Assembly (NCBI GenBank): GCA_016866675.1
Contig: VGLO01000001.1
Location: 1-54,099 of the forward strand
Source: Candidatus Staskawiczbacteria bacterium
Lineage (GTDB): Bacteria; Patescibacteriota; Minisyncoccia; Minisyncoccales; Staskawiczbacteraceae
DNA: 54,099 bases
Direction of reading: 5' to 3'
The notes below the pieces were generated by a model that saw only the letters and a program-made list of their open reading frames with translations, was not told the origin of the DNA and searched no databases. This document shows positions 5,545-50,709 of this stretch, piece by piece (within the stretch, counting starts at the first letter, position 1; each line of letters opens with the position of its first letter). The position numbers and the translations under genes are program-made.

Positions 5545-5814
5545 ATGAGAATTAGAGAGCTTCATAATATTAGCGCTTCAATTCATATGCTAGCAGATCA
5601 TATTGGTCTCAATAAGTGCTTTATTAATGAGTTTAATAATAAATATAATCAATTAATTGAGCAAATCCACCATGACTTTGAAGTGAAAAATAAGTGCAAA
5701 AATGGTCGATCGAATTCATCTAAGAATATTTCCTTATCAATTGAAAGAAAAGTTCGTCTCCTAAAACAATGGGTAATGCACAACTTAGAGTTTAAGGTTA
5801 AATCTCGTCGCTAA
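5545..5814 (+). CDS. small orphan protein (89 aa), SD-led cassette
   Basis: GGGAG lies 8 nt upstream of the ATG. Terminator GTCGAAC-AAA-TGTTCGAC plus T6 at 5815-5838. Opposite strand to the flanking core genes. Confidence 0.55.
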   Translation: MRIRELHNISASIHMLADHIGLNKCFINEFNNKYNQLIEQIHHDFEVKNKCKNGRSNSSKNISLSIERKVRLLKQWVMHNLEFKVKSRR

Positions 5815-17539: not shown

Positions 17540-17650
17540 TGGTGGCAACTACCTACTCTCGCGTTCATCACACTACCATCGGCCTTGATGTATTTCACTT
17601 CCGAGTTCGAAATGGGATCGGGTGGGACAACACCAGTATAATTGCCACCA
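17540..17650 (-). rRNA. rrf: 5S rRNA
   Basis: The reverse complement aligns with bacterial 5S (…CCTACTCTCGC…ACACTACCATCGG…TTTCACTTCCGAGTTCGAAATGGGATCGGGTGGGACAAC…). Terminal helix TGGTGGCAA/TTGCCACCA. Terminator AAATGCCGAAAGTTTCGGC plus T-run follows at about 17500-17525. Confidence 0.9.
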
Positions 17651-17730
17651 CAAAACTCAATTTGTGGACTAAGTTTACTTTAAAGCAAAATTCTGTATCT
17701 TGCAAAAAACTCAATTTTCTGAGTTTATCG

Positions 17731-20785
<3,055 letters not shown>

Positions 20786-21120
20786 CAATTATCGAATTCG
20801 TTTTAATTCCATACCGCTTTTTGCGGTCGGCATAGAATTTATCTTGCGTAAGATACAGTTTTTTCTTGTACAGCACGGGTGTGACGTACAAGAGTATGCT
20901 TTACCTTCACCTTTTTTTGGTGAAGAATTTTGATTACCTTTATTCTACTAAATAAGACCCATCTTAAAATTAGTAGAATGGCCCTGTTGAATTTCAACTT
21001 AGTAAAAAACTCATATATGCCTTTTGGGCATATTTTAACAGGGTTAAAATTTTCAAGCAACTTTCATAATTAGTCCGCGATTAAAAATATTTTTACTTTC
21101 AATCGCGGGCTAACTAATTT

Positions 21121-21148
21121 CAAACAAAAAAATCCGCGTCAAGCGGAT
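21121..21148 (-). terminator. intrinsic terminator-like hairpin inside the 23S leader
   Basis: Minus-sense ATCCGC-TTGAC-GCGGAT followed by T7GTTTG. An upstream segment CAAGCGGAT (21176-21184) can pair with the 5' arm instead. Confidence 0.45.
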
Positions 21149-21225
21149 CCAACTGATACAAAAATTCAGACAATCATCCGCTTGCTTTATTTTGTTTAGA
21201 TTTAGTTTGATATAACATTAAGGCC

Positions 21226-21254
21226 ATTCTAATCTATTTAAAAAGCAGTGTCAA
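21226..21254 (-). promoter_or_regulatory. promoter TTGACA-17-TAGAAT upstream of 23S-5S
   Basis: Minus-sense TTGACA (21254-21249), 17 nt spacer, TAGAAT (21231-21226). Confidence 0.5.
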
Positions 21255-21353
21255 GTCCAATTACTAGTTTAATTAAATCTAAAGATTAAACCCATACTTT
21301 TAAAGCAAAAGCGCCCCGAAAAACAGGGCGCTTTTAGCATTTATTATTAACTC

Positions 21354-22049
21354 TTACCTCTGAGTTATTTTATTTCTCATGTCTTTGAGTGCATCAGCTG
21401 CTACTTCCTTTCCGCCTAACCCAATCGCAATAGCAATTCCTAATGACAAAGTCCCAACAATACCCCAGACAATTGCCATATATAATGTCTTAATCAAATC
21501 GCTTGTAGGTAATAATTGCTCCAGAATCAAGAATATTGTAAATATCCAAATTGACCACTTAATAATCATTGAAGCTAAATGTCCGTACCCCACTTTCATT
21601 CTTTCAACTGTAATTCTGACAACCTTTTCAATAATGTCAGAAATTATTACTGCCACAACAAATATTAAAGCAGCAACAACTACGTTTGGTAAGTAATTTA
21701 ATACTTGAGTTAATACTCCACCAAATTGTGATAACTGAAGAATATCTACAGAAATAAGTAATGAAACTATTACAAAAACCCACTTTACAATAGCTCCAAT
21801 AAACTCTGATGGATCAACGTCGACATTTGCTCTTTGTAGGGCCTTGTGCCATCCCTCTTTGTCAAAAATTTTATTAAACTTTACTGACTTTAAAATTTCA
21901 GAGATTACTCTTCCAACACCAACTGAAATTAAGTATCCAACTACAAAAACTATTACAGCCAACAAAAGTTTTGCAGCAAAACCTATAAACCCTTGCAGAA
22001 ATGGCTGAATAATTATTAAAAACCATTCGTTATATGTCATTTTTAACAT
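21354..22049 (-). CDS. polytopic membrane protein with repeated conserved TM-helix units (MscS-N-terminal-like)
   Basis: Internal repeats of hydrophobic helix plus charged linker. Terminator AAAGCGCCCTG...GGGGCGCTTT at 21309-21336. Confidence 0.55.
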   Translation of the reverse strand: MLKMTYNEWFLIIIQPFLQGFIGFAAKLLLAVIVFVVGYLISVGVGRVISEILKSVKFNKIFDKEGWHKALQRANVDVDPSEFIGAIVKWVFVIVSLLISVDILQLSQFGGVLTQVLNYLPNVVVAALIFVVAVIISDIIEKVVRITVERMKVGYGHLASMIIKWSIWIFTIFLILEQLLPTSDLIKTLYMAIVWGIVGTLSLGIAIAIGLGGKEVAADALKDMRNKITQR

Positions 22050-22274
22050 GAAACTTAAAACGTGAAACGTGAAACAATGGTTTTACGCCTCAAATAAAAA
22101 GTTTCAAATTTATTTAGTTCGCCCTTAAATTATAAAGTCGACCACGAAAAGAGCGTTGTTAATTCTATTTATCAATTATCCTATTTTTTGCACACACAAA
22201 TCAATACCTCCTGTGGATAAGTAAGGAAGCACAACGAACACTCATCCCAAGTAAAGCGAAGGATTACCGTATAA

Positions 22275-23000
22275 CTATTTAATATACTGTTCCCAATCTT
22301 TAGGTAAATCAATTTTCAAATGAATATCCTTATCTCCAGTAGCTGATTTAAATGATAATCCTGTTGCACAAAGAGCAATGGAATTATTATCTTGCCATTC
22401 ATCAGTCCCCTTTTTTTGATCCTGTCTGCCGGTAGACAGGTGTTCTTTGTCTCCTAGAATTGGATGACCTAATTCAGCCATTTGAATTCTGATTTGGTGA
22501 AACCTTCCGGTTTTGGGTAAAATTTCAAGTAAACTATATTTTCCGTTTGACTTTACCACTTTATAACTTAACTCAGCTGTTCTTGTTTTAGTAGCCTTTT
22601 TAACAGCCTCTAAAATTTCCTTATCACTTTTTTTTGCAAATCCTTCAGCAAAAAATGAAACCTTACTCACCTTCTCTTTTAGCTCTCCTTGTTTTTCTTT
22701 TAATTCCCCAAAAACAATTGCATTGTAAGTTTTTTGTATGGCGTGGTTGCGAAACTGCTCTGACAACCTTGAGGCTCCTTTAGATGTTTTCGCAAAAACC
22801 ATAATTCCTGTGACAGGCTTGTCCAGTCTATGAACAAGACCCAAAAAAACATTTCCGGGCTTATTATACTTTTCTTTTAAGTAATTTTTAACTTCGTCAA
22901 AAATACTAGGTTTTCCTGTCATATCACCATGACTCAAAACACCCGCTGGTTTTAACACTGCTATTATATGGTTGTCTTCGTATAAAACTTTTAATTCCAT
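22275..23000 (-). CDS. RluA-family pseudouridine synthase
   Basis: HRLDKPVTGIMVFAKT (catalytic Asp motif) and GRFHQIRIQMA. Confidence 0.85.
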   Translation of the reverse strand: MELKVLYEDNHIIAVLKPAGVLSHGDMTGKPSIFDEVKNYLKEKYNKPGNVFLGLVHRLDKPVTGIMVFAKTSKGASRLSEQFRNHAIQKTYNAIVFGELKEKQGELKEKVSKVSFFAEGFAKKSDKEILEAVKKATKTRTAELSYKVVKSNGKYSLLEILPKTGRFHQIRIQMAELGHPILGDKEHLSTGRQDQKKGTDEWQDNNSIALCATGLSFKSATGDKDIHLKIDLPKDWEQYIK

Positions 23001-23066
23001 TTTAAGTATGATACAGGTAAATTAGAGTACTTTCAATTCCCCTCTCAAAAGAAAGGAGGAGAACGC

Positions 23067-23348
23067 ATGAGGATCAGCTTTTTCAATTACCGCTTGGAAT
23101 TGAAAAAGGGATCGTCCAATGGCCCATTTCTTAGTGTTAATTGGCCATTGGTTGACCTGCCCGTTGCAGGTTCGAAGTTGGCCTTCGCAGTTTTGCGGAA
23201 CGGCCAGTCGAGTAAGGAAAGGATTGTCAATTCTGAAGTCTTAGTTGTCCAAGAAAGGGACAACTCCGCCCTAATTTGGGTGGACATGGAGGAGCTGAGT
23301 GATGAAGAGTTCGTTGGAAATTGGCGAAACTATTCGCCACCACATTAA
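23067..23348 (+). CDS. orphan protein (93 aa), SD-led, locally GC-rich
   Basis: AAGGAGGAG lies 5 nt upstream of the ATG. Hairpin CCCCGCAACAATGTTGCGGGG at about 23358-23386. Confidence 0.5.
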   Translation: MRISFFNYRLELKKGSSNGPFLSVNWPLVDLPVAGSKLAFAVLRNGQSSKERIVNSEVLVVQERDNSALIWVDMEELSDEEFVGNWRNYSPPH

Positions 23349-23388
23349 TTTCGCCTAAACCCCGCAACAATGTTGCGGGGTTGAACAT

Positions 23389-23682
23389 TTAGACTAATAA
23401 TCTTTTAATCCTTTCTGCTTCCCCTTCTACAACGCTACCGTCATATTCTCCACTGTGACCAGTTGAGCCCTCATATGAAGGCTTTTTTTGGTCCAAGTGT
23501 AAGTTAAATGAAAACCCATCACCACTTTCTTTAATATATAAATGAAACCTTGGATAATCTGCTCCGCCCATTTTTCTAATTACGCTAAACTCCCCTGCTT
23601 TCTGAAAATAAGCCGGCTGATATCCAATTGTCCTCATAATGTCGTTTATACTTTTATTAATATTAGTAATTGAAAATTCCAT
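23389..23682 (-). CDS. conserved-looking hypothetical protein, tandem paralog A (97 aa)
   Basis: MEFSI...IGY...YPRFHLY...LHLDQKKPSY..GHSGEYDG...E.ERIK. No SD. Confidence 0.6.
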   Translation of the reverse strand: MEFSITNINKSINDIMRTIGYQPAYFQKAGEFSVIRKMGGADYPRFHLYIKESGDGFSFNLHLDQKKPSYEGSTGHSGEYDGSVVEGEAERIKRLLV

Positions 23683-23775
23683 ATTTTTTATTTTCCCGAC
23701 GCCAAAGCCGTAAAGGATCCGCGTATGAATTTAATCACATTAAATTTATCGGGACAAATTGCATTTTTAGTTTGA

Positions 23776-24081
23776 TTATTCGTTAATTGATTTTTTTATT
23801 ATTCCTTTAATTCTATTGGTCTCCACTTTTATTTCATTACTACTATATATATCAAGTTTATCCAGTAAGCTTTCTCTCAAAGTTTCTTTTTGGTCAATAT
23901 GAAGTCTAAATAAAATTGAGCCATTTTTACGCTCACCATATAGATGGAATTTTGGATAAGAGATACTTCCCGACTGCCTCAACATAGAACAAATACCTTT
24001 TTCGTGAAACTTAATTTCACTATACCCAATTAATTTTGCAATATCAGTAATACTCATCTGTGTTTTAATACTGAATTCCAT
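23776..24081 (-). CDS. hypothetical protein, tandem paralog B (101 aa)
   Basis: MEFSI...IGY...YPKFHLY...LHIDQKE... aligns with paralog A but lacks the SYEGSTGHSGEYDG segment. Confidence 0.6.
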   Translation of the reverse strand: MEFSIKTQMSITDIAKLIGYSEIKFHEKGICSMLRQSGSISYPKFHLYGERKNGSILFRLHIDQKETLRESLLDKLDIYSSNEIKVETNRIKGIIKKSINE

Positions 24082-24083
24082 AG

Positions 24084-24125
24084 TTGCTAAAAATTTTACT
24101 TTATGATACTATTTTTTCAGCACAA
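24084..24125 (+). promoter_or_regulatory. cassette promoter TTGCTA-17-TACTAT-6-AGCACAA
   Basis: -35 at 24084-24089, TG-extended -10 at 24107-24112, conserved start AGCACAA at 24119. Confidence 0.55.
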
Positions 24126-24160
24126 GAACAAGTTCTCTAGTCTCGCCAAGGGAGCGACAT

Positions 24161-24391
24161 ATGTACTATCTGATTATGGTAAAGCCTTCAGAAATTTTTG
24201 ATGGAGCTGAATGCGTTAGTCTGGAATTTGAGATATCTCGCAACAATCTAGAAGCAATCAAACAGTCTGAGAAAATTGCCTCTGAAGTAAAATTTAAGAT
24301 GCCTAATGGTCAAACCTGCAAAGGAGCTCCCGTGGCTCTTAGAGAATGGGGCGGAAACGACCCTCAACCTACAATTATTAAACAGTGGTAA
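24161..24391 (+). CDS. small orphan protein (76 aa), SD-led cassette
   Basis: AAGGGAG upstream of the ATG. Terminator ATCTCG...CGAGAT plus T8 at about 24400-24429. Confidence 0.5.
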   Translation: MYYLIMVKPSEIFDGAECVSLEFEISRNNLEAIKQSEKIASEVKFKMPNGQTCKGAPVALREWGGNDPQPTIIKQW

Positions 24392-24428
24392 TATTTTATA
24401 ATCTCGTACGCCCAATGCGAGATTTTTT

Positions 24429-24470
24429 TTGACAAAGTTTCCTCCATAGAATAACGTATAAACAGCACTT
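24429..24470 (+). promoter_or_regulatory. cassette promoter TTGACA-17-TAACGT-6-AGCACTT
   Basis: -35 at 24429-24434, -10 at 24452-24457, conserved start AGCACTT at 24464. Confidence 0.5.
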
Positions 24471-24506
24471 AAACAACAAATTTAACAAAAAGAAAAGGAG
24501 TTTACA

Positions 24507-24722
24507 GTGAAAGCATTTCTTAGTTTCATGATATTGCTCCTATTAATAACAGGAATAATACTTACAACTATGCTATTGATCTTACACTCAAGCCCTGCCG
24601 AGGGAGCATGGTTGGCGACTATCGCCTATCTCATACTTGGCACAATATTCACTGTGCCAAACCTTTTTCCGCAGACACACCACCCGGACTGTTACTTTGA
24701 CCTTCAGGAGGACTGGCAATGA
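24507..24722 (+). CDS. small two-TM membrane protein (71 aa), GTG start
   Basis: AAAGGAG lies 7 nt upstream of the GTG. Two hydrophobic helices. Confidence 0.5.
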   Translation: MKAFLSFMILLLLITGIILTTMLLILHSSPAEGAWLATIAYLILGTIFTVPNLFPQTHHPDCYFDLQEDWQ

Positions 24723-24892
24723 AAAATGAAGAGATTGTCGCGAGAGTAAGAGCTTTGGTCAAAAGCTATAATGAAGCATACGAGGGTCTTTTCACAAGAT
24801 TTGAACCAAATTACAGTAAAATAAGGAAAGAGAAGTTAAAACTTCAAGCAGAACTTACCACCGAACTTCGCAAAATTCTCTCTTTGCAATAG
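24719..24892 (+). CDS. small helical protein (57 aa), translationally coupled (ATGA overlap); below the ORF-track cutoff
   Basis: My own translation is MKNEEIVARVRALVKSYNEAYEGLFTRFEPNYSKIRKEKLKLQAELTTELRKILSLQ. The start overlaps the stop of 24507-24722. A terminator-like hairpin follows at about 24900-24927. Confidence 0.45.
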   Translation: MKNEEIVARVRALVKSYNEAYEGLFTRFEPNYSKIRKEKLKLQAELTTELRKILSLQ

Positions 24893-24927
24893 TCTATATC
24901 CCCAGCTCGCCGCTGTGGGATTCTTTA

Positions 24928-24966
24928 TTGACAAATTATTTATTTTGTAATATTGTATTATCTAGA
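24928..24966 (+). promoter_or_regulatory. cassette promoter TTGACA-17-TATTGT, start near AGAACC
   Basis: -35 at 24928-24933, -10 at 24951-24956. The sequence around the start (TCTAGAACCTT) closely resembles the 13021 cassette. Confidence 0.5.
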
Positions 24967-24988
24967 ACCTTCAATAAAGGAGAGTGTT

Positions 24989-25246
24989 ATGAAGTACAGA
25001 CTTCTCTATCAAATCTGGAGCTATGATGTGGTGACGGGGATGAGATACAGAGAAGAGCAATTAGAGGCACCAGATGACGAAATGGCCAAAACCCTTCTTT
25101 CTCAATTCTCTTTTAACCTAAAAGAGAGAGTTCATAGACTGCAAATCAAAGCATTTTTCATTAGAGAATTATTTCAGGCAGGCGAGCACCCGGATGAAGA
25201 TCGGCTCGTGATACGACTAGATACTGCCTCTACCTGGACGCCTTGA
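24989..25246 (+). CDS. small orphan protein (85 aa), SD-led cassette
   Basis: AAGGAGAG lies 6 nt upstream of the ATG at 24989, so the track start at 24953 is less likely. Confidence 0.5.
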   Translation: MKYRLLYQIWSYDVVTGMRYREEQLEAPDDEMAKTLLSQFSFNLKERVHRLQIKAFFIRELFQAGEHPDEDRLVIRLDTASTWTP

Positions 25247-25286
25247 GTTTTTTGCCAGTTGCCCCAGCATCTGGTTTTTTATTTAC

Positions 25287-25328
25287 TTGATAATTATAAT
25301 TTTTTATTATATCCTACAACCAGCACAA
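25287..25328 (+). promoter_or_regulatory. cassette promoter TTGATA-17-TATCCT-6-AGCACAA
   Basis: -35 at 25287-25292, -10 at 25310-25315, conserved start AGCACAA at 25322. Confidence 0.5.
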
Positions 25329-25342
25329 AGGAGGAATTATTA

Positions 25343-25546
25343 ATGGAAGACTATGAATGGGAATACTGTGTTTTTTCTCATAATGCTCAAAGCCGAGAAA
25401 TCTATGATTTCACTGCCGAAGATGATAATAAAGCAGTCTGCATAGTAAGAGGAAAGAAAAGAGATATGGAAAGAATTTACAGGAAAGTTAAACACGTTGG
25501 ACTATTCCGAAAGTTAAAGATTATCAATGTAAGCTTCTTTAACTAA
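25343..25546 (+). CDS. small orphan protein (67 aa), SD-led cassette
   Basis: AAAGGAGG lies 9 nt upstream of the ATG at 25343. Terminator AAGACACGTATATGTGTCTT plus T-run at 25547-25568. Confidence 0.5.
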   Translation: MEDYEWEYCVFSHNAQSREIYDFTAEDDNKAVCIVRGKKRDMERIYRKVKHVGLFRKLKIINVSFFN

Positions 25547-25567
25547 GACACGTATATGTGTCTTTTT

Positions 25568-26620
25568 TTATCCGTGTTTAAACTCTATTACATCACCATC
25601 GCGAACCACATACTCCCTTCCTTCGGTTCTAATTTTTCCTGTCTCACGAGCTTTGGCGTAACTTCCTGCTTTTAGTAAATCTTCCCAAAAAATAACTTCA
25701 GCTTTTACAAATTTTTGCTCAAAGTCACTATGAATTACACCGGCAGCTTGCGGAGCTTTGTCCCCCTTATGAATTGTCCAAGCACGCGTTTCATCTTCTC
25801 CTGTGGTCAAAAATGTTTGTAGTCCCAATAGTTCGTACGATTTTTTAATTAAAATATCTGTCCCTGATAATTCAGGCAAACCTAATTCAATTCTTTCTTG
25901 TCTAGACAAGTTATCTGCATCAACTTCAGTCCCCACATCAACAATAACATAGTTTTTTAGAGTGTTTTTAAGTTCATCACCTACTTCTTCTGGCTTTCCA
26001 TTTAATAAATATAGTCTTGGCTTAAATGTTAAAAGTTGAAAGTTTTTCAAAATCTCTATTTCATCATCTGACCATTCTTGATCAACTAATATTTTTTGTT
26101 GACTTAAAAATTCTTTAGCTTTTATTAAGACAGCATGCTCTTTAATCCCCTCTTTCTTTCCGGCACGCAAATCTCCTGATAAACCATCAATTCTTTTATC
26201 AACGGTTTCTAAATCTTTTAAAATGAGCTCCACATCTAAAATTTCTTTATCTCTTAGAGGATTCACATCATTTTGAGTATTAATAATATCTGAATTACCA
26301 AATACTCGTAAAACATAAACAATAGCATCTGTTTCTCTAATATTTGCCAAAAACTTATTTCCCAACCCCTCTCCTTCAGATGCACCTTTTACTAAGCCGG
26401 CAATATCAACAAAGTCTACGGTGGCATATATTTTTTTTGCAGATTTTGAAAAATCTGATAACTTATGCACTCTTTCATCTGGAACCAAAACAACCCCAAC
26501 AGAGGGGTCAATTGTGGCAAACGGATAATTTGCAATCAGTACCTGTTTTTTAGTTAATGTTTTAAATAGTGTGGATTTACCAACATTCGGTAACCCAACT
26601 ATTCCTATTGATAAACTCAC
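25568..26620 (-). CDS. ychF: redox-regulated ATPase YchF (Obg-like)
   Basis: GIVGLPNVGKSTLF P-loop, DIAGLVKGAS, C-terminal TGS-like end YVVRDGDVIEFK. GTG start. Confidence 0.9.
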   Translation of the reverse strand: MSLSIGIVGLPNVGKSTLFKTLTKKQVLIANYPFATIDPSVGVVLVPDERVHKLSDFSKSAKKIYATVDFVDIAGLVKGASEGEGLGNKFLANIRETDAIVYVLRVFGNSDIINTQNDVNPLRDKEILDVELILKDLETVDKRIDGLSGDLRAGKKEGIKEHAVLIKAKEFLSQQKILVDQEWSDDEIEILKNFQLLTFKPRLYLLNGKPEEVGDELKNTLKNYVIVDVGTEVDADNLSRQERIELGLPELSGTDILIKKSYELLGLQTFLTTGEDETRAWTIHKGDKAPQAAGVIHSDFEQKFVKAEVIFWEDLLKAGSYAKARETGKIRTEGREYVVRDGDVIEFKHG

Positions 26621-26684
26621 TTTTTGAATAATACAGTATTTTTAAGCAAAATAAAAGTCCCGACGAGATGTCGAGACATTATTG

Positions 26685-26924
26685 CTATCCTTTTTTGTGT
26701 TTTCCATTTTTACCATTTTTTGGCAGAAGTGGCTTTTGCCATTCCGGTGGTCTTCCGGTTTCGTTCATATATTTTAGAAGATTTTCAAGGGGAATTCTTC
26801 TGAATGTTCCAACCATGTATCCCTTTATATTGCCTCTATCAAATTCTCTGATAATGGTTTGTTGAGAGCACCTACAAATTTTAGCTGCCTCTGCGGTTGA
26901 AAAAATATCTGGATAGTTTTTCAT
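26685..26924 (-). CDS. excisionase-family (MerR-superfamily) helix-turn-helix DNA-binding protein
   Basis: FSTAEAAKICRCSQQTIIREFDRGNIKGY... is typical of excisionase-type HTH. GGAGGTG lies 5 nt upstream of the ATG at 26924. Terminator hairpin plus TTTTATTTT at about 26650-26684. Confidence 0.7.
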   Translation of the reverse strand: MKNYPDIFSTAEAAKICRCSQQTIIREFDRGNIKGYMVGTFRRIPLENLLKYMNETGRPPEWQKPLLPKNGKNGKHKKG

Positions 26925-26951
26925 TTCCACACCTCCAAATCTGGTAATACT

Positions 26952-26994
26952 CACGACGCAATAATAAAGAAAATTTCTGCACTATTGCGTCGTG
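26952..26994. repeat. perfect 12 bp inverted repeat CACGACGCAATA / TATTGCGTCGTG (19 nt spacer)
   Basis: Read directly from the sequence. It lies between the trhO-like stop and the HTH gene RBS. Confidence 0.8.
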
Positions 26995-27010
26995 GGTAAA
27001 TTTTAATGAA

Positions 27011-27877
27011 CTATACCGGCAAGACTGGGCGTAATTTTTTTCTGTATTTTAATATACAATTATTGCAACAGATAACTTTTTTTGATGGCCTCATTGAGTC
27101 ATCATTATAAAAGTCTTCTGACTTTTTATTGCAGTATCTGCACTTTCCTACTATTTCCCTTTTTACATTTTCAACAACAGAAGTCAACATTCTGTTATCA
27201 AAAACAAACAAACTTCCCTTAAAATGTTTCCCAGGAAATTTTTTAATATAGGTATGTATTCCGTCTTTTAGTTGATATAGGTTTTTAAAACCCCTGTCTT
27301 TTAGTAAGACAGTTGCCTTTTCGCATCTAATTCCACCTGTACATACTGCCACCACCTTCTTGTCCTTTAAATTATCTAATTTTCTTAACTTGGCAGGTAA
27401 ATCTCTAAATTTTCTCAAATTTGGATTAACAGTATTTTCAAAATAACCAGCATCAATTTCAAAATCATTTCTTAAATCAAGTACCACAAAATCTTCCTTT
27501 TTTTCATACATTTTATCAAGCTGTGTAGCAGTAACCACTGGAGCTGTATCCCTCTTAATATTTAAAGAGCCGACTCCTAATGTAACTACCTCTTCTCTTA
27601 CTTTTACTTTTAATTTGCCGAATGCATTGCCATTTCCTTTACTCTCCTTGAAAACAACATCTTTAAAAACTTTTTGCTCACGCAATTTTTTAATGTATAA
27701 TTTAACATTTTTAGTAGTCCCCTCAAGGGTTGCATTAACCCCCTCTTTAGCAATAAGCATTCTGCCTGTTAAACCAAAAGACTCAGCAATTTTTCTTTGT
27801 TTTATTTTAAAAGAATCCGGATTTTTTATCGGAGTAAATTTATAAAATAGTATAATGTTGTACTTATTACCTTTCAT
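27011..27877 (-). CDS. trhO: rhodanese-domain protein, UPF0176/TrhO-like (tRNA U34 hydroxylase family)
   Basis: ILFYKF N-terminal domain, rhodanese active-site loop CTGGIRCEK, C-terminal Cys cluster. The start is set at MKGNKYN (27877) because the longer track ORF overlaps tRNA-Ala. Confidence 0.75.
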   Translation of the reverse strand: MKGNKYNIILFYKFTPIKNPDSFKIKQRKIAESFGLTGRMLIAKEGVNATLEGTTKNVKLYIKKLREQKVFKDVVFKESKGNGNAFGKLKVKVREEVVTLGVGSLNIKRDTAPVVTATQLDKMYEKKEDFVVLDLRNDFEIDAGYFENTVNPNLRKFRDLPAKLRKLDNLKDKKVVAVCTGGIRCEKATVLLKDRGFKNLYQLKDGIHTYIKKFPGKHFKGSLFVFDNRMLTSVVENVKREIVGKCRYCNKKSEDFYNDDSMRPSKKVICCNNCILKYRKKLRPVLPV

Positions 27878-27895
27878 ATTTGGTCTAAAAAAAAG

Positions 27896-27972
27896 TGGTG
27901 GACCTGACTGGACTCGAACCAGCAACCTCCTCATTGCAAATGAGGCGCTCTAGCCAATTGAGCTACAGGCCC
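27896..27972 (-). tRNA. tRNA-Ala(UGC), CCA encoded
   Basis: Reverse complement GGGCCTGTAGCTCAATTGGCTAGAGCGCCTCATTTGCAATGAGGAGGTTGCTGGTTCGAGTCCAGTCAGGTCCACCA forms a cloverleaf with G3:U70 and anticodon loop TTTGCAA. Confidence 0.9.
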
Positions 27973-28015
27973 ATATGTTTGATATTATATCAAACTTTAT
28001 TTAATTTCCAATACC

Positions 28016-28477
28016 TCATACTACTTTTAATATTTTGATTTTTACCTTTTTTCCCTTAACTTCGTAGCCAAATTCCTCGTCAACTTTCCTTCCTATTAAT
28101 TTTCCTCCTAATGGCGACTGGTAAGAAATTTTGTTTTTTAAAATATCTGCTTCAGTTGGACCAACAAGACTATAAACTTCTTCCTTTCCATCAAATAAAA
28201 TTTTGACTTCAGAACCAACCTGTATGACTCCCCCTTCTTTTTTCTCAACAACAATAGCATCGTTAATAGCATTTTCTAACTGCTCAATTCTTCCAAGCAA
28301 ATAAGACTTTGCATTTCTTGCATCATGATAGGCTGCGTTTTCTTTTAAGTCACCAAAAGCGGCCGCTTCAGCTATTAGCTTTACAATTCTTCTCATTTCT
28401 GTGGTTTTTAAATCCTTTAACTCGTCTTTTAACTTTTTTAGTCCGTCTTTAGTAAAATATTGTACCATTGAAGTCAT
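28016..28477 (-). CDS. greA: transcription elongation factor GreA
   Basis: N-terminal coiled coil (LKENAAYHDAR) and C-terminal FKBP-like domain. Confidence 0.9.
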   Translation of the reverse strand: MTSMVQYFTKDGLKKLKDELKDLKTTEMRRIVKLIAEAAAFGDLKENAAYHDARNAKSYLLGRIEQLENAINDAIVVEKKEGGVIQVGSEVKILFDGKEEVYSLVGPTEADILKNKISYQSPLGGKLIGRKVDEEFGYEVKGKKVKIKILKVV

Positions 28478-28637
28478 GGAGGCAGGTCGCTCGCCCTTAC
28501 CGCCCTCGCCCTACTAAGGCTAGCTCTACGGTTCTGGTCTCGCTCTTTCAAAACCCTCTGTTTTGAATTATTTCCTACACGGGGAAACCGAATTTTCCCC
28601 GACCCCCCCTCCAGTTGTATTAATTTTAAGTAATCGT
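28478..28637 (-). promoter_or_regulatory. GC-rich structured 5' leader of greA (about 160 nt)
   Basis: The closing helix GGAGG..GGTCG (5') pairs with CGACC..CCTCC, which abuts the ATG. Internal hairpins GGGGAAA-ATTCGG-TTTCCCC and CAAAAC-AGAGG-GTTTTG. Confidence 0.4.
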
Positions 28638-28643
28638 ACAGTT

Positions 28644-28671
28644 ATACTATCAAAATTCTTAAAAATTTCAA
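28644..28671 (-). promoter_or_regulatory. greA promoter TTGAAA-16-TAGTAT (TG-extended)
   Basis: Minus-sense TTGAAA (28671-28666) and TGATAGTAT (-10 at 28649-28644). Confidence 0.45.
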
Positions 28672-28705
28672 GTAAAAGAAAAGTCACTCACGAGCGTAAG
28701 TGACT
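28668..28705 (-). terminator. intrinsic terminator ending the 16S transcription unit
   Basis: Minus-sense AGTCACT-TACGCTCGTG-AGTGACT followed by TTTTCTTTT. Confidence 0.6.
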
Positions 28706-28715
28706 CAAGAAAAAT

Positions 28716-28810
28716 GCCAGATAACTAAGGTGTCCGGTTGCCCATGAAGCTGGCCGTCACCATTCGGCCGAGGAGGTAGCAACCGTCGGTTTCAACCAAA
28801 GTTATCTGGC
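28716..28810 (-). ncRNA. 95 nt long hairpin element displaying ACCUCCU in an internal loop
   Basis: Stem GCCAGATAACT..GG / CC..AGTTATCTGGC, inner stems CGGTTGC/GCAACCG and GGCCG/CGGCC. Minus-sense UACCUCCUC (28771-28777 on plus) is unpaired in this fold. Confidence 0.4.
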
Positions 28811-29368
28811 AATATTTTAGTGAAAAGCTGAGCAGTCAATCACCGTTCCAGACGAGACAACGAGTCTCAGTCAACAACTGACTGCTCAGCAAAAGAGCAA
28901 AGTGCTAGACAGCTAGCAGATGTCAATGCGGATTTTTGAACCCAGCGCAGTTCTGACCTACGCAGTCAAAACCTTGATTCAAAAATATACAATGACGGCT
29001 TGTGGCTCCCCATTTGACCCAACAAGCCAAACCTGTTAACTGTCTAGCGAACTAGACAATCAATGAATTCCACGCAACCCGCCGAGGTTATAAGAATTCA
29101 TCAACTGTCCAGAAAATTACTTACTAATTTTAGTAAACAATTTACTAGACAGTCTCATTAACCAAATTAATTTAAATTAGTTTCTTTAAGTTGCTTCGAA
29201 TAGTTGGTTTTTTTGTCGAAACCAGCAAAAACGCATATCTATTGAAAGAGATTATTAATTCTTCGCAAAAGCTTCGACCGGCTTGCGCCAGGCGCCTTAG
29301 CGAAAAATATTTCTCTCGCAATATAGTCAACGCTCAATATCTTGGTAAAACCAAAATATTTAAAAAAA
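28811..29368 (-). other. structured 16S 3' trailer (series of 7-12 bp hairpins, no ORF)
   Basis: Hairpins include GCTGAGCAGTCA...TGACTGCTCAGC, ATTTTTGAA...TTCAAAAAT, GGCTTGT...ACAAGCC, TGTCTAG-CGAA-CTAGACA, ATGAATTC...GAATTCAT and ACTGTCCAG...CTAGACAGT. The 8-mer CTAGACAG recurs in both orientations. Confidence 0.5.
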
Positions 29369-30827
29369 TGATCCACGAGCAGCTTCCGCTACCCGTGCCT
29401 TGTTACGACTTAGTCCCTCTCATTGAGCCTACCTTGATCCCACTTGCGTGGAGCTTCGGGTATTCCCAACTCGCTTGACTTGACGGGCGGTGAGTACAAG
29501 ACTCAGGAACGTATTCATCGCCACGTAGCTGATTGGCGATTACTAGCAATTCCAACTTCATGAGGGCGAGTTTCAGCCCTCAATCCGAACTGGGACCGGC
29601 TTTGGTGGGATTATCCTCCGTCTTGCGACTTCAGTACCCATTGTACCGGCCATTGTACCACGTGTGCAGCCCTAGGCATCAAGGGCCATGCTGATTTGGC
29701 GTCATCCTCGCCTTCCTCCCAATTATCTCGGGCAGTCCCCTGTGACATATAAAACACAGGGCAAGGGTTGCGTTCGTTACCCGAATTAACGGTACGTCTC
29801 AAGACACGAACTGACGACAACCATGCAGCACCTGCCCAACTGTCTTGCGAAGTTCTACTTTCATAGAATTGTCAGTTGGGTTTCTAGCCTAGGTAAGGTT
29901 CTCCGGTTGTTGTCGAATTAAGCCACATGGTCCACTGCTTGTGTGAGTCCCCGTCTATTCCTTTGAGTTTTAAACTTGCGTTCGTACTTCCCAGGCGGAT
30001 AACTTAACGCGTTAGCTTCGCCACTGGCAGGGTCGACACTGCCAATAGCCAGTTATCATCGTTTACGGCGTGGACTACAAGGGTATCTAATCCTTTTTGC
30101 TCCCCACGCTTTCGTCCCTCAGTGTCAGGGTCGCCCCAGCTAACTGCCTTCGCTTTTGGTATTCCCGATGAGATCAACGGATTTCACCCCTACTCCATCG
30201 GTTCTGTTAGCCTCTAACGCCCTCTTAGTCTGGCAGTATTCAAAACAGCTCAAAGGTTAAGCCGATGAGGTTTAATCTTGAACTTACCAAACCACCTACG
30301 GACCCTTTACGCCCAATAAATCCGGGTAACGCTTGGGGTCTCTGTATTACCGCTACTGCTGGCACAGAGTTAGTAACCCCTTATTCATCTGGTACTCTCA
30401 ATAATTTGCTCCCAAATAAAAGAAGTTTACACCCCTAAGGGCTTCATCCTTCACGTAACGTCGCTCCATCAGACTTTCGTCCATTGTGGAAGATTCTCGA
30501 CTGCAGCCTCCCGTAGGAGTGTGAGCCGTGTCGCAGTCTCACTCTTGGGGGTCGCGCTCTCACGCCCCCTACCCGTCATTGCCTTGGTGGGCCATTACCC
30601 CGCCAACAAGCTGATAGGCCGCGGACCATTCATAAAGCGGCTTGCGCCTTTACTCTTGCGAGACTATGGGAAATTACCCCGTCTTTCGACGAGCTGTGCC
30701 CCACTTTACGGTATGTATCCACGTGTTACTAAGCCGTTCGCCGGTGCCCTTGCGGGCCCCTTGACTTGCATGCCGGTATCCACGTTACCAGCGTTCACCC
30801 TGAGCTAGGATCAAACTCTCAAAATTT
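29369..30827 (-). rRNA. rrs: 16S rRNA (about 1.46 kb); 3' boundary uncertain
   Basis: The reverse complement runs from ...TTTGAGAGTTTGATCCTAGCTCAG... to ...AAGTCGTAACAAGGCACGGGTAGCGGAAGCTGCTCGTGGATCA. The 515 region reads GTGCCAGCAGTAGCGGTAATAC. Confidence 0.9.
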
Positions 30828-31090
30828 CATGCCAGTTAGAGTACTGGCAGACTTATTCGAAACAACTTAAAAAAACTAATATCCCCAACATTGGGATGGT
30901 TGTGTACCAAGTTGGGATTCAGAATAAGTTTTTAATGTTCGTTTTCAACGGACCAACCTTTGGTACGCCAAGTGAAAAAAACACCCGCGAAGACCTACAA
31001 ACTTTGTAAACCTTCGCGGATATTTTTAAAACAATATATTTTAAAAATGTTTGCCTTTTATTTTGTTTAATTGTATTACTCTCCTCTCCC

Positions 31091-31118
31091 ATTCTATTCT
31101 AAATAATCTGAATGTCAA
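31091..31118 (-). promoter_or_regulatory. 16S promoter TTGACA-16-TAGAAT
   Basis: Minus-sense TTGACA (31118-31113) and TAGAAT (31096-31091), about 260 nt upstream of the mature 5' end. Confidence 0.5.
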
Positions 31119-33384: not shown

Positions 33385-33579
33385 TTATCCCTCGTTTCCA
33401 GCTATTAATTTTGGTTTCCATGGAAGATTTGGTTTCCAAAGCCTCCAATCGCGAAACCGAGGGTGATTATTCCTAATTTCCCTATATCGTTCAACTACTT
33501 CCTTGTCATCCTCGCCTTTTATAATAACCTTTGAATTCTTACCACCATCATCGGTATAGCAAAGTTCGTAATAAGTCAT
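33385..33579 (-). CDS. small orphan protein (64 aa), SD-led
   Basis: GGGAGG lies 5 nt upstream of the ATG. Second gene of a two-gene unit. Confidence 0.5.
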   Translation of the reverse strand: MTYYELCYTDDGGKNSKVIIKGEDDKEVVERYREIRNNHPRFRDWRLWKPNLPWKPKLIAGNEG

Positions 33580-33919
33580 TACTACCTCCCTTACATTCCT
33601 TGACGATATACAAGAGAGTCATCAGATCGCTGATACGTTCGTCGCTCAACAACAATACCGTTGATTTTTTTTCAACAGTATAATATTGTTCAGACCAACG
33701 ACGTTGCACTGCCTCTATCTTAATGCGCTTTAGTTGCTCTTCCTGCTGATGTTCGTGCTTGAGAAATCGCCTCCAAGCTTCAAGACGATTGACTTTGCGA
33801 CTATACTTAGAAAGTCGCTTAAAGAATGATTCAAACTTAAAACGCAACATAAGCATCTTCCCTAACCTCTTTTTTATTATATTTTCCCTCCTGCTGTTTT
33901 TCAAGATTTTCTTGGCCAT
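33548..33919 (-). CDS. basic helical orphan protein (123 aa), SD-led
   Basis: AAGGAGG lies 5 nt upstream of the ATG. Divergent from the RF1-like gene. Confidence 0.5.
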
Positions 33920-33986
33920 CTCAACCTCCTTATTTTGCTATCAAGGTACTGTTTTAAAAACTAAATTCTTATGGTATATTACTACA

Positions 33987-34727
33987 ATGGAAATAGAAAA
34001 ACAATCAGTAATTGTAGAAATAAGAGCTGGCACCGGCGGAGATGAAGCCGGGCTTTTTGCGCGTGATTTATATAGGATGTATACAAAGTATGCTACCAGC
34101 CAAGGATGGGGGCAAAAAGTGCTGGATTCTAATATGTCTGACATTGGAGGATATAAAGAAATTATTTTTGAGTTAAAGGGAGAGGAAGCTTATGATCAGC
34201 TTCAGTATGAGGGCGGAGTACATCGCGTTCAAAGAATTCCCAAAACAGAAAAACAGGGACGTGTACATACTTCAACGGTGACAGTGGCTGTAATGAAAAA
34301 ACCTCAAAGGACAGAATTTTCAATAAACCCAGCTGACATTCAAATGGATACTTACAGGGCTTCAGGAGCCGGCGGACAGTATGTAAATAAGACCGAATCA
34401 GCTGTTAGGCTTACTCACAAGCCAACAGGAGTTGTAGTGACTTCTCAGTCTGAAAGATCTCAACTTCAAAATCGAGAAAACGCCATGCAATTAATGGCTG
34501 CTAGAATCTTGCAAGCTCAAGAGGAAGCAGACTTATCAAGTTTATCAGAAGAAAGACGCGCACAAATTGGATGGGCAAAAAGATCAGAAAAAACTCGGAC
34601 ATATAATTATCCGCAAAACAGAATTACCGATCACCGAATTGGAAAATCGTGGCATAATCTTGAAAAAATTGTTGAAGGAGATTTAAGCCCCATCATCAAA
34701 GCATTTAAAAAAGGAAAAGAAGAATAA
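33987..34727 (+). CDS. prfA: class I peptide chain release factor, RF1-type, lacking N-terminal domain 1 (246 aa)
   Basis: Begins at [25 protein letters not shown] (start of domain 2). [14 protein letters not shown] (PxT-type anticodon motif) and [16 protein letters not shown] (GGQ). The in-frame upstream extension in the track shows no RF similarity. A TG-extended -10 (TGGTATATT) lies 6 nt before the ATG. Confidence 0.8.
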
Positions 34728-49275: not shown

Positions 49276-50709
49276 CTACTTAATTTTTTTAAATCTTAAA
49301 AAAGCTGGTATCTCCCATTCTTCTTCCTGCTTTGACTTAGTTTCACTCTCAAGCTCTTCTGCTTTTTGAATCTCCAAAGCACTTCTTCGTAAATTCTTCT
49401 TTAAGCTTAGTGTTTTTTCAGAAATACTTATCTTTTTTGCTTGAAACTCCTCTGTTTTTAAGTTGGCAAATTCCGGCATAAAGTCAACAGATATTGGTAA
49501 TTTTTCCATATTCTGCTTTTCCTTTTTTGCTTTTTTGAAAGATTTTTGGACTTTCAACTTTAAAGGTTTTGCTTTTCTTACTTTTTCTTTTGAAACTACT
49601 GTCTTTTTAGCTATTTTTTCAGGTTGCCCAGAAAAAGGCATGGGCCCCGTCATAAGTAATGTAGTTTTTATTTTATTTTTAAACTTTGCATTCTTTGATA
49701 TTCCAAAAATAATTTTTGCTTTTGAGTTTTTTTCAGAAATTGCCTTACTAATTTTATCAACCTCAAACATGCTAAGATTTTTACCTCCCTCAATATTAAA
49801 CAAAACTTTTTCTGGCAAGAAATGATCTTGATAAAGCTGGTTATGTAAAACACTGGCGATTACCTTTTCTGCCTTATCTGACCCGGAGGCCTCTGCTGTA
49901 TTTAAAAAGGCCAAATTCCCTCTACCTTGCAATATTGCTCTTAAATCTGCGAAGTCAATGTTTATTAATCCAGGACTCTGTATTAAATCAATTAAGCTCT
50001 CCAATGACTCAATTAAATTCTTATTAACCATTGAAAAGGCTTGGACTATTGGAGTGTTTTCATCTATTACTTTAAAAATTCTCTCATTAGGTATTGTAAT
50101 TGAAACATTAAGCAATCTCCTTAATTCTCTTTGAGCTTTTAAGGCTATTTTATGCTTTCCTGACCCTTCAAACTTAAACGGCAAAGTAAAAATTCCAAAA
50201 GTAATTCCACTAAAGTCTTTGGCTGAATCTAAAAATACTTTTGTTGCGCCAGAACCAAGCCCACCCCCCAAACAAGTAATAAAAATCATAATATCTTGAT
50301 CTTTGAATAAATGGGATATTTTTTCTTTTTCTCTTTGAGCAGCTTCCTCGGCCAGCTCAACATTAAGTCCAGTGCCCAACCCATGTGTTAACTCTTGACC
50401 AAAAATAAAATGCTTGATTCCCTTTTTCTTTTTAAAAGATCTGATATCTGTATCGGCTATCACGAAAGTGGCTTTTTCCAAAGACCTACCTATTTCAGAA
50501 ACAATTGACCCACCCCCTCCACCAATTCCAATAACCTTTATCTTTGGCTTGAAAGTTTCTGCCAAAGTTGGAGAATATTCTTTATTTAATTTATTTTCTT
50601 TTTTTGAATTTTTATTGGACAACTTATTTTTTTTTACAAGTAAAATACTCTTCTCAGGCCCTACTGTTTTTTTTACTTTTGGCATATTAGAGATTTTCTT
50701 TTTTTTCAT
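49276..50709 (-). CDS. ftsZ: cell division GTPase FtsZ with long basic N- and C-terminal extensions
   Basis: GIGGGGGS, GLGTGLN, CLGGGLGSGA (tubulin signature variant). Confidence 0.9.
   Translation of the reverse strand: MKKKKISNMPKVKKTVGPEKSILLVKKNKLSNKNSKKENKLNKEYSPTLAETFKPKIKVIGIGGGGGSIVSEIGRSLEKATFVIADTDIRSFKKKKGIKHFIFGQELTHGLGTGLNVELAEEAAQREKEKISHLFKDQDIMIFITCLGGGLGSGATKVFLDSAKDFSGITFGIFTLPFKFEGSGKHKIALKAQRELRRLLNVSITIPNERIFKVIDENTPIVQAFSMVNKNLIESLESLIDLIQSPGLINIDFADLRAILQGRGNLAFLNTAEASGSDKAEKVIASVLHNQLYQDHFLPEKVLFNIEGGKNLSMFEVDKISKAISEKNSKAKIIFGISKNAKFKNKIKTTLLMTGPMPFSGQPEKIAKKTVVSKEKVRKAKPLKLKVQKSFKKAKKEKQNMEKLPISVDFMPEFANLKTEEFQAKKISISEKTLSLKKNLRRSALEIQKAEELESETKSKQEEEWEIPAFLRFKKIK

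Follow-up and report, generated by a model that had tools for sequence, protein, structure and literature searches.

A 16S rRNA gene without the anti-Shine-Dalgarno sequence in a Parcubacteria lineage related to 'Candidatus Staskawiczbacteria'

The analysed stretch of DNA (the window, 54,099 nt) contains a single visible 16S rRNA gene. It is unlinked from the 23S gene, which is located at 17728-20777, and is followed by greA. The features of this region, all on the minus strand, are:

31091..31118, minus strand: promoter-like TTGACA-16-TAGAAT, 5' of the 16S gene, matching 11 of 12 consensus positions
30854..30880, minus strand: 5' leader arm of the pre-16S processing stem, complementary to the 3' trailer arm
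29361..30826, minus strand: 16S rRNA gene, full length by the Rfam RF00177 model, 1466 nt, short as is usual for CPR
29374..29397, minus strand: helix 45, CACGGGUAGC-GGAA-GCUGCUCGUG, intact with its GGAA loop (RF00177 alignment and direct reading)
29369..29373, minus strand: GAUCA linker, retained, which reads GGAUCA when joined to the last G of helix 45
29359..29368, minus strand: replacement tail, U7 (29368-29362) and then AAA (29361-29359), in the position of CCUCCUUU
29336..29360, minus strand: trailer hairpin AAUAUUUUGG-UUUUA-CCAAGAUAUU, a variable insertion
29325..29331, minus strand: GUUGACU box, a conserved trailer element; relatives read (G)UAGUCGAC
29176..29202, minus strand: 3' trailer arm of the pre-16S leader/trailer stem, 159-185 nt beyond GGAUCA
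28016..28477, minus strand: greA, the gene next after the 16S (Pfam GreA_GreB_N and GreA_GreB)

The 16S gene is a full-length bacterial SSU rRNA by covariance model. The RF00177 match to 29361-30826 scores 1345.6 bits and covers model positions 1-1533, with helix 45 included and paired. After GGAUCA, where CCUCCUUU is expected, the gene has UUUUUUUA. It continues past helix 45 and GGAUCA as UUUUUUUAAA. At the 3' end of the alignment, model positions 1522-1533 (AUcACCUCCUUu) are aligned with AUCAUUUUUUUA of the window. In the canonical system CCUCC is found within the tail of about 13 nt after helix 45; here this tail is GAUCAUUUUUUUA. A pattern search for CACCTCC, ATCACCTCCTT and GATCACCTCC gave no occurrences on the minus strand of the whole window. 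The RF00177 alignment and the sequence therefore confirmed the initial annotation, which described helix 45 and GGAUCA as intact and a U-run in place of CCUCC. The 16S gene of the window is genuinely without CCUCC. It shares with aSD-less (anti-Shine-Dalgarno-less) Parcubacteria (Paceibacteria) a 16S 3' end that lacks CCUCCU.

Conserved rRNA is often broken or mis-joined by assemblers, which could create such a 3' boundary through a chimera or a sequencing error. The junction of 16S, tail and greA is 100% identical over 3.1-6.0 kb in four separately assembled contigs (Logan SRR7052762, SRR7053297 and SRR16108675, and JGI 3300020193), three of which may share one sampling campaign. The three Logan contigs begin at window position 29400, within the 16S, and the JGI contig (L002) covers 360 nt of 16S plus the tail. 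However, the four assemblies come from different pipelines and agree base for base over the junction, and both the tail and the gene after it are shared by relatives from unrelated metagenomes. The four identical assemblies and the tails of the relatives rule out an artefact, the probability of which is practically negligible.

The aSD could also be displaced rather than lost, if an intron or intervening sequence after GGAUCA, or a separate 3' fragment, let the mature rRNA regain CCUCC. Insertions are frequent in CPR rRNA genes (PMC12641178, PMC9297842), and on this strand CCUCCUC is found 590 nt downstream at 28776 and CCUCC at 28482. However, an Rfam scan of 20700-29420 found no intron family, and no group I/II intron or other Rfam match lies between the 16S and 23S genes even at E <= 1. 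Since CACCUCC is also absent on the strand, the 16S is not intron-split, and no downstream exon that would restore its 3' end was found. The CCUCC at 28482 adjoins the greA start codon, and downstream CCTCC is sporadic and unconserved in 118 relatives. One relative (L118) has only about 160 nt between 16S and greA, and the conserved processing stem encloses a 16S of normal length. The empty Rfam scan, the lack of CACCUCC and the sporadic CCTCC in relatives rule out an intron, intervening sequence or displaced exon, which we consider highly improbable. Neither the assembly artefact nor the intervening sequence offered by the initial annotation was borne out.

The missing CCUCC follows a particular type of helix 45. 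GTDB species genomes were scanned with a loose helix-45 pattern, and the matches listed were mostly from Actinomycetota and Chloroflexota. The 120 16S 3' ends among the matches listed comprise 7 with the helix 45 of the window and 113 without it, which served as the control group. Among these listed matches, all 113 controls have a CCUCCUU-type tail, GGATCACCTCCT(T/A), and CCTCC is absent from all 7 loci with the window's helix 45. It is also absent from 117 of 118 metagenome loci with this helix. Combined, 124 of 125 public 16S with the identical 24-nt helix 45 (7 genomic, among the matches listed, and 118 metagenomic) are without CCTCC. Compared with 0/113 in the controls, tail loss is associated with helix-45 type at a Fisher p of ~7e-69, where the genome part covers the matches listed.

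The replacement tail is conserved within the clade. GGAUCA-U7-8-AA is identical in 13 relatives, whose 16S identity, calculated over whatever portion is present on each contig, is 86-92%. The alignment with relatives called for earlier thus gave the same tail and not a canonical one. U7 and AA are invariant across the alignment of 14 related 16S, and conservation collapses directly downstream. The GAUCA linker is invariant in the window's clade and degenerate (GAAUA, GAUUA, GAGUA) in remoter aSD-less lineages. Non-U tails follow the same helix 45 in other aSD-less clades.

The gene neighborhood is shared as well. The 16S-then-greA order is kept in 13 relatives, and 16S, greA, ychF, rluA and o231 are in the same order in L118, L137 and others, with 60-77% protein identity. 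L118 is a Staskawiczbacteria MAG that shares the 16S-greA-ychF-rluA order with the window at 65-77% protein identity. The window shares its helix 45 and tail type with L118 and with L090, a Paceibacterota MAG. Its NCBI lineage is Patescibacteria group > Parcubacteria group. As judged from sequence, helix 45 and tail type, synteny, protein identity and NCBI lineage place the window inside Parcubacteria. The missing CCUCC is a trait that a whole branch of ultra-small Parcubacteria (CPR) has inherited, and is neither an artefact nor a one-off.

The flanks of the 16S gene indicate how its transcript is made. The leader arm at 30854-30880 and the trailer arm at 29176-29202 match over 27 nt with 93% complementarity. 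This stem was found by a repeat search; cofolding of leader and trailer with the 16S ends included gave spurious pairings. The relative L126 has the same leader/trailer element on both 16S flanks. At the position of the trailer hairpin, 8 of 14 relatives have a hairpin built from differing sequences. Because the conserved leader/trailer stem is located ~160-185 nt further downstream, pre-rRNA transcription must pass through the U-run.

This read-through bears on the possibility that helix 45 and U7 form an intrinsic terminator of the unlinked 16S, in which case the U-run would serve transcription termination and not the ribosome. A loose consensus scan flags 29397-29374 plus GATCATTTTT as terminator-like, and the gene that follows the 16S, itself unlinked from 23S, is a protein gene. 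However, the stem and the U-run are 5 nt apart, and the same helix 45 is found with non-U tails in other aSD-less clades. The conserved 27-nt leader/trailer stem, 159-185 nt downstream, requires read-through and opposes the terminator flagged by the scan. We regard this role of the U-run as very unlikely.

The core genes of the window are SD-less. An SD core (GGAG, GAGG or AGGA) is found at -18..-4 in none of the 44 annotated core genes. The link drawn earlier between aSD loss and SD-less core genes holds, since even a 4-nt SD core is absent in 44 of 44. The frequency of G is 0.06-0.23 at -15..-6 with no G peak, and that of A is 0.56 at -3. SD enrichment 5-12 nt before most start codons, as in canonical systems, is not seen in the window; SD-like sites are found only at small, mostly unannotated ORFs. 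The positive control of the SD pipeline gave only 21-33% in SD-using genomes against 11% background, and SD percentages for the pooled relatives are to be read loosely because the signal is weakened by crude calling of ORFs and starts.

A promoter signal is found close to the start codons instead of an SD. In the pooled aSD-less relatives, for which start calls are crude, the last T of the -10 box peaks at -7 to -9 from the start codon (48 observed vs 6.9 expected, p = 2e-24; 24 vs 6.9, p = 3e-7). The peak is weaker in the window's clade (10 observed vs 3.4 expected, p = 0.003). In the window itself about four genes have this spacing, for example lysS, rluA and ychF. A -10 box that ends about 7 nt before the start codon would place the transcription start at the AUG, and the boxes that end 7-9 nt before start codons point to mRNAs that may be leaderless.

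Together, these analyses suggest with a probability of roughly 0.8 that the window comes from a Parcubacteria lineage related to 'Candidatus Staskawiczbacteria', that the 16S aSD was lost in an ancestor, and that the ribosome initiates without SD:aSD pairing. A genuinely aSD-less ribosome had been the third option in the initial annotation, and it is favored by the identical junctions, the tails of relatives and the helix-45 lineage trait. The same replacement tail is fixed in related genomes. Since the aSD tail is replaced and core genes are SD-less, mRNA would be recruited without SD:aSD pairing. One route of initiation may use leaderless mRNAs. A second may rely on leaders that are rich in A, poor in G and weakly structured and that have A at -3, along with coupling in tight operons. 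The loss was probably eased because, according to the literature, the class (GTDB Paceibacteria) is mostly without Era, the GTPase that reads GAUCA-CCUCC.

A second 16S with a normal CCUCC tail, GGAUCACCUCC, might exist elsewhere in the genome. In that case the copy in the window would be a paralogue, specialised or in decay, and canonical ribosomes would read the GGAGG genes. Both the window and its relatives show a true enrichment of SD-ATG arrangements, the visible part of the genome is 54 kb, and Alteromonas has two 16S classes with different aSDs (PMC6107228). However, the copy in the window is full length (1345 bits), comes with a promoter and a processing stem of its own, and lies in a gene order conserved across 13 relatives. 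CPR genomes usually have one rRNA gene set. The same kind of tail is found in 124 aSD-less relatives from many environments (the genome part being the matches listed), and SD use is 0/44 in core genes. These observations make a second, canonical 16S decidedly improbable.

The U-run could also act in initiation. If kept in the mature 16S, it might be a degenerate replacement aSD that forms A-U/G.U pairs with purine tracts 5-13 nt before starts, GGAGG included. U7-AA is invariant in the 14 related 16S while the flanking trailer diverges, and poly-U could in principle pair with any purine tract. Purine hexamers that end at -8..-5 reach ~2.5-3x background in the window's clade, and A5 runs ~2x. 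However, the purine-tract ratio is 0.96 in other U-run lineages and 1.38 in lineages without U-runs, and A-rich leaders are general to SD-independent initiation. The cognate tail gives no hybridisation-energy trough at SD distance. The sole energy dip is that of AUG with GAUCAU, and it is equal in a clade whose tail differs. Tail-complementary k-mers are not enriched before starts, and A-U/G.U duplexes would be very weak. The k-mers, the duplex energies profiled for cognate and non-cognate tails, and the comparison of U-run and non-U-run lineages thus give this role no support, and we consider it unlikely. Similarly doubtful is a broader version, in which the aSD was replaced and not merely lost. 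U7-8 on the mature 30S would be a low-specificity dock for mRNA or protein, with a conserved UUC(A/C)-loop-(U/G)GAA mini-hairpin tail as its equivalent in sister clades. A U7-8 docking tail that pairs with purine tracts, GGAGG of the accessory cassettes included, would, if true, give bacteria a second SD/aSD-like system, specific to the lineage.

GGAGG sites are nevertheless present in the window. GGAGG-N3-9-ATG occurs 21 times, compared with 6.9 +/- 2.9 expected. Two regions contain such ORFs:

23053..25546, plus strand: island of small ORFs behind GGAGG/AGGAG sites, with starts at 23067, 24161, 24507, 24719, 24989 and 25343
33385..33931, minus strand: two SD-led small ORFs (64 and 123 aa) that lie between rpmE and a short RF1 gene

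In the first, two SD-less minus-strand 'MEFSI' genes are interleaved with the plus-strand small ORFs. The GGAGG-led ORFs are GC-richer (mean GC 0.39 vs 0.33). They match no Pfam or PHROG family, except for one HTH_17/excisionase-like ORF. The one ORF searched, o93 (93 aa), matches itself alone among 5.8 billion proteins and is an ORFan. The fetched loci of relatives contain no homologues of the GGAGG-led ORFs, whereas the neighboring SD-less MEFSI gene has one, and the island is absent from the ychF-rluA interval of relatives. No phage DNA match was found for the GGAGG cassettes. A foreign origin of the cassettes has no direct support; the remaining evidence is GC, strand and absence from syntenic relatives.

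The relatives have SD-like sites of their own. In L208, the gap equivalent to 33385..33931 contains different small ORFs behind SD-like sites, and one small ORF that looks homologous and has an SD-like site is found at the same locus. SD-like sites before ATG are ~2.3-fold enriched in the window's relatives as well. This enrichment and the L208 ORF are somewhat awkward for reading the GGAGG sites purely as recent relics. We infer that these sites are more simply accessory DNA whose SD no aSD decodes, for which the other partner suggested in the initial annotation would not be needed. The GGAGG-led small ORFs would then be strain-variable accessory DNA with unread SDs, either relics of acquisition or inconsequential for this ribosome.

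Loss of the aSD in Parcubacteria has been described. An anti-SD motif was detected in only 48% of Parcubacteria, and its absence overlaps the uL1-lacking group (Tsurumaki et al., 2022, RNA 28:1041; PMC9297842). The authors' inference is that no SD helices are formed. Like the window, the aSD-less members have a 16S 3' end without CCUCCU, and relatives and synteny indicate the same lineage. In aSD-less Paceibacteria, loss of uL1 (rplA), Der and mostly Era is associated (PMC9297842, PMC12641178). Loss of Era, Der and uL1, and recognition of GAUCACCUCC by Era, are also covered in PMC12641178 and PMC10582724. Because this aSD loss is already published (PMC9297842), the window is an added instance with further detail and not a discovery. 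That paper covers motif absence and the uL1 overlap only; a replacement tail, start signals and SD-led accessory ORFs are not described in it. The window's clade adds to it the invariant GGAUCA-U7-8-AA tail. What the window contributes in detail is this fixed U7-8-AA tail, transcription past it as far as a remote processing stem, a promoter signature of the leaderless type, and SD-led small ORFs that are limited to variable islands.

Other systems without SD:aSD pairing are similar in part. The consensus aSD is absent in 128 of 20,648 taxa, about 0.6% (Amin et al., 2018, PMC6107228; Lim et al., 2012). These include Chryseobacterium, Blattabacterium, some Mycoplasma and Carsonella; organisms without aSD lack SDs too, and SDs are scarce in Bacteroidetes (PMC6107228). 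Like the window, other aSD-less bacteria keep helix 45 and have a non-consensus tail and SD-less genes, with no compensating variant SD. Unlike the window, they belong to different phyla with independent losses, and those surveys predate most CPR genomes. Bacteroidetes of the Flavobacterium johnsoniae type resemble the window in their SD-less core genes, A-rich upstream regions and preference for A at -3. In most Bacteroidetes, CCUCC is intact and sequestered on the ribosome, whereas in the window the aSD sequence is absent; the working may be similar. Mammalian mitochondria are a likely working analogue of the window's system, and their mRNAs are largely leaderless. However, they are organelles with very few mRNAs and with dedicated factors, while the window is from a cellular bacterium that has hundreds of genes, of which many are operon-internal. 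The mammalian mitochondrial 12S rRNA has helix 45 and no aSD (PMC10582724).

SD:aSD pairing is the textbook mode of bacterial initiation, and a large class without aSD that is abundant in the environment is a natural experiment in SD-independent initiation. SD-trained gene finders and RBS-based start models will mis-call starts in these genomes. Annotation of the 16S 3' end will also be wrong in them. A canonical 3' end at the locus studied here would have read GGATCACCTCCTT.

The rRNA genes of the window, and the elements of the 16S 3' end in its alignment to the Rfam model, are located as follows.

29361-30826, minus strand: complete 16S rRNA, Rfam bacterial model positions 1-1533, 1345.6 bits
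17728-20777: 23S rRNA (Rfam)
17540-17649: 5S rRNA (Rfam)
29397-29374, minus strand: helix 45, perfectly paired, CACGGGUAGC-GGAA-GCUGCUCGUG
29373-29369, minus strand: GAUCA after helix 45
29368-29361, minus strand: UUUUUUUA, opposite the model's CCUCCUUu

Read directly, the raw sequence of the 16S 3' end is ...GTGGATCATTTTTTTAAATATTTTGG.... The alignment and the raw sequence confirm the initial annotation, in which helix 45 and GGAUCA are kept and a U-run (U7, then AAA) replaces the CCUCC anti-Shine-Dalgarno (aSD) tail.

An assembly artefact at this junction had been considered. We used the GreA protein (28016-28477, directly downstream of the 16S gene) as the query in an exact-sequence lookup for other contigs. 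Its sequence is present in four (Logan SRR7052762, SRR7053297 and SRR16108675; JGI 3300020193), all 100% identical to the window across 3.1-6.0 kb spanning the 16S 3' end, the U-run and the spacer. Some runs may share one campaign, so the four identical contigs rule out an assembler-specific chimera and do not prove independent populations. An intervening sequence after GGAUCA, or a displaced tail, was also rejected. An E-value-level Rfam scan of the entire 16S-23S interval gave no hit to introns or any other relevant family, and a string search found no CACCTCC-type string on the minus strand of the whole window. The CCUCC strings downstream, at 28776 and 28482, are not in GAUCA context, and one of them adjoins the greA start codon.

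The tail was compared across other genomes. Scanning GTDB species genomes with a helix-45 pattern gave at least 120 loci. Among the matches listed, all 113 with another helix-45 stem (Actinomycetota, Chloroflexota, Magasanikbacteria, Saccharibacteria and others) carry GGATCACCTCCT(T/A), and all seven with the exact helix 45 of the window, including MAGs labelled Paceibacterota and Staskawiczbacteria, carry an A/T-rich tail without CCTCC. Querying JGI metagenomes with the helix 45 of the window gave 120 further loci; CCTCC is absent from 117 of the 118 readable tails. The association of this helix with CCTCC absence is strong (Fisher p ~7e-69, listed GTDB matches and JGI loci).

Thirteen loci whose 16S is 86-92% identical to that of the window, over the part held by each contig (several only ~120-350 nt), have the same GGATCA-T7-8-AA tail. 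All alignment columns through U7 and the next AA are invariant, and conservation collapses directly beyond. In the same relatives the 16S gene is followed by greA, ychF, a gene for the small protein MEFSI (named after its first residues), rluA and a mechanosensitive-channel-like gene, the proteins being 60-77% identical to those of the window. One is a Staskawiczbacteria MAG (NCBI lineage Patescibacteria group, Parcubacteria group). The shared tail and gene order show that the tail is inherited within a lineage of Parcubacteria. The four contigs, the JGI tails and the 13 close relatives thus bear out a genuine absence of the aSD, and these sequence comparisons show that its loss in Staskawiczbacteria-like Parcubacteria is real, inherited and lineage-wide.

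More distant aSD-less lineages that share this helix 45 have lost even GAUCA. Among metagenome loci L125-L244, more distant aSD-less Parcubacteria (e.g. L164, L173, L183 and L243) have another recurrent tail, GGA(A/U/G)UA-(A/U)UUCAA...UGAA(A), whose UUCC...GGAA variants suggest a mini-hairpin of 3-5 bp. In these lineages, start codons are very often preceded by a -10 box whose end is at -7.

Loss of the aSD is itself already reported for Parcubacteria. The motif CCTCCT was detected in only 48% of them, the lineages without it overlap the group lacking uL1, and SD helices are probably not formed there (Tsurumaki et al. 2022, PMC9297842). The consensus aSD is absent from 128 of 20,648 taxa, which also lack SDs (Amin et al. 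2018, PMC6107228). In Paceibacteria, rplA and der are missing and era is mostly missing too (PMC12641178); Era, which reads GAUCA and CCUCC, is lost from most CPR (PMC10582724). For these bacteria, we found neither the replacement tails nor leaderless signals nor SD-led cassettes described in open-access text.

As initially annotated, the core genes are SD-less: of the 44 annotated in the window, none is preceded at -18 to -4 by GGAG, GAGG or AGGA. Upstream G frequency is 0.06-0.23 without a peak; that of A rises to 0.56 at -3. Across ~770 kb from aSD-less relatives, 12-16% of genes have an SD-like 4-mer at these positions, hardly more than the 8-11% at a control offset. These figures are rough, since SD-using controls give only a moderate SD signal in this crude pipeline. 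An unbiased k-mer comparison revealed -10 promoter boxes near start codons, with the last T of TAnnnT peaking sharply at -7 to -9. Counts in aSD-less relatives are 48 vs 6.9 expected (Poisson p 2e-24) and 24 vs 6.9 (3e-7); in the clade of the window, 10 vs 3.4 (p 0.003). A peak there is what leaderless mRNAs are predicted to show. Four genes of the window conform to it (lysS, rluA, ychF and the one at 49276-50709), three with -35 boxes.

The U-run could in principle act as a replacement aSD by pairing with purine tracts, and the clade of the window does show a 2-3 times enrichment of purine hexamers that end at -8 to -5. Three tests failed to support the idea: k-mers complementary to the tail are not enriched, duplex-energy profiles have no cognate trough, and the purine enrichment is absent in other U-run lineages but present to some degree in non-U-run lineages. 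Initiation in this organism would be SD-independent: part of the operon-first genes would use leaderless initiation, and the remaining genes A-rich, weakly structured leaders and coupling.

The rRNA genes (17540-30826) are unlinked. The 8.6 kb between 16S and 23S-5S holds greA, tRNA-Ala, rhodanese, ychF, rluA and others; tRNA-Ile is found 20 kb upstream of 16S. In 13 relatives, too, 16S is followed by greA. Upstream of 16S lies a promoter-like element:

31118-31091, minus strand: TTGACA-16-TAGAAT

A 27-nt leader stretch (30854-30880) is 93% complementary to a trailer arm at 29176-29202, 159-185 nt beyond GGAUCA, and the relative L126 has the same element on both flanks of 16S. The two arms make up the usual pre-16S processing stem. 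Since this stem extends past the tail, transcription must read through the U-run. A loose scan marks helix 45 and U7 as terminator-like; the required read-through rules out a dedicated terminator. A hairpin of differing sequence occupies the same place, between the U-run and a conserved GUUGAC/GUCGAC box, in 8 of 14 relatives.

Strong GGAGG sites before small cassettes, noted initially, are real. GGAGG-N3-9-ATG occurs 21 times vs 6.9 +/- 2.9 expected, a count reached in 0 of 100 shuffles, and intergenic cases have small ORFs downstream.

12742, 23067, 24507, 24719, 24989, 25343, plus strand (nearly all core genes are on the other strand): starts of GGAGG-led small ORFs
26924, 33579, 33919, minus strand: starts of GGAGG-led small ORFs

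These ORFs have a GC of 0.39 vs 0.33 in core genes. Pfam and PHROG searches assigned a family to only one of them, an HTH_17/excisionase-like protein next to tRNA-Ala, and there is no phage DNA match. Among 5.8 billion proteins, the only match to the 93-aa ORF is the ORF itself. Relatives' loci contain no homologues, while the adjacent SD-less MEFSI gene has one there, and the ychF-rluA interval is 400 nt in L118 (the Staskawiczbacteria MAG) vs 2568 nt in the window. This suggests that the GGAGG-led ORFs are strain-variable accessory DNA. In relatives, too, ATG is ~2.3-fold enriched at SD spacing downstream of AGGAG/GGAGG, and the rpmE-RF1 gap of L208 contains different small ORFs with SD-like sites, one weakly resembling a 64-aa ORF of the window. 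SD-led small ORFs thus appear to recur in variable islands of the clade. Their SDs may be mere passengers on DNA that is mobile or turns over rapidly.

The HTH_17/excisionase-like gene (26685-26924, minus strand) has a GGAGG site near tRNA-Ala (27896-27972), and relatives have no equivalent of the rhodanese gene beside it; together they hint at an integrated element. Two MEFSI paralogues of ~100 aa without a Pfam family lie at 23389-23682 and 23776-24081 (minus strand). One copy is conserved in L118, L137 and L170, where it lies between ychF and rluA; the second copy in the window is duplicated and diverged, inside the SD-led ORF island. An RF1-type release factor with the PKT motif and GGQ is only 245-251 aa long (window 33990-34727, plus strand; L208 8441-9196). 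The PCRF match begins only at profile position 98; the proteins of the window and of L208 therefore both lack the N-terminal domain.

Several features of the rRNA region were also observed. The 515F universal primer site in 16S (~30330-30350) reads GTGCCAGCAGTAGCGGTAATAC, with TA in place of CC, which would leave standard 515F amplicon primers mismatched in this organism. In the 16S leader, a terminator-like 20-bp hairpin followed by U7 (30979-31025, minus strand) lies between the promoter and the gene, a possible attenuator or element of antitermination type. The 23S gene measures 3050 nt vs 2925 model positions and may contain an insertion; rRNA insertions are common in CPR. A ~60-nt two-hairpin element, GGGGAAAAUUCGGUUUCCCC-GUGUAGGAAAUAAU-UCAAAACAGAGGGUUUUGA, is found at 28540-28610 (minus sense), 60-130 nt upstream of greA, and has no Rfam match. 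Near-identical copies, with compensatory changes in the first stem, are present in L208 (~5550-5619 and ~1358-1403) and L137 (~1729-1800); the element is a possible clade-specific small RNA or cis-element.
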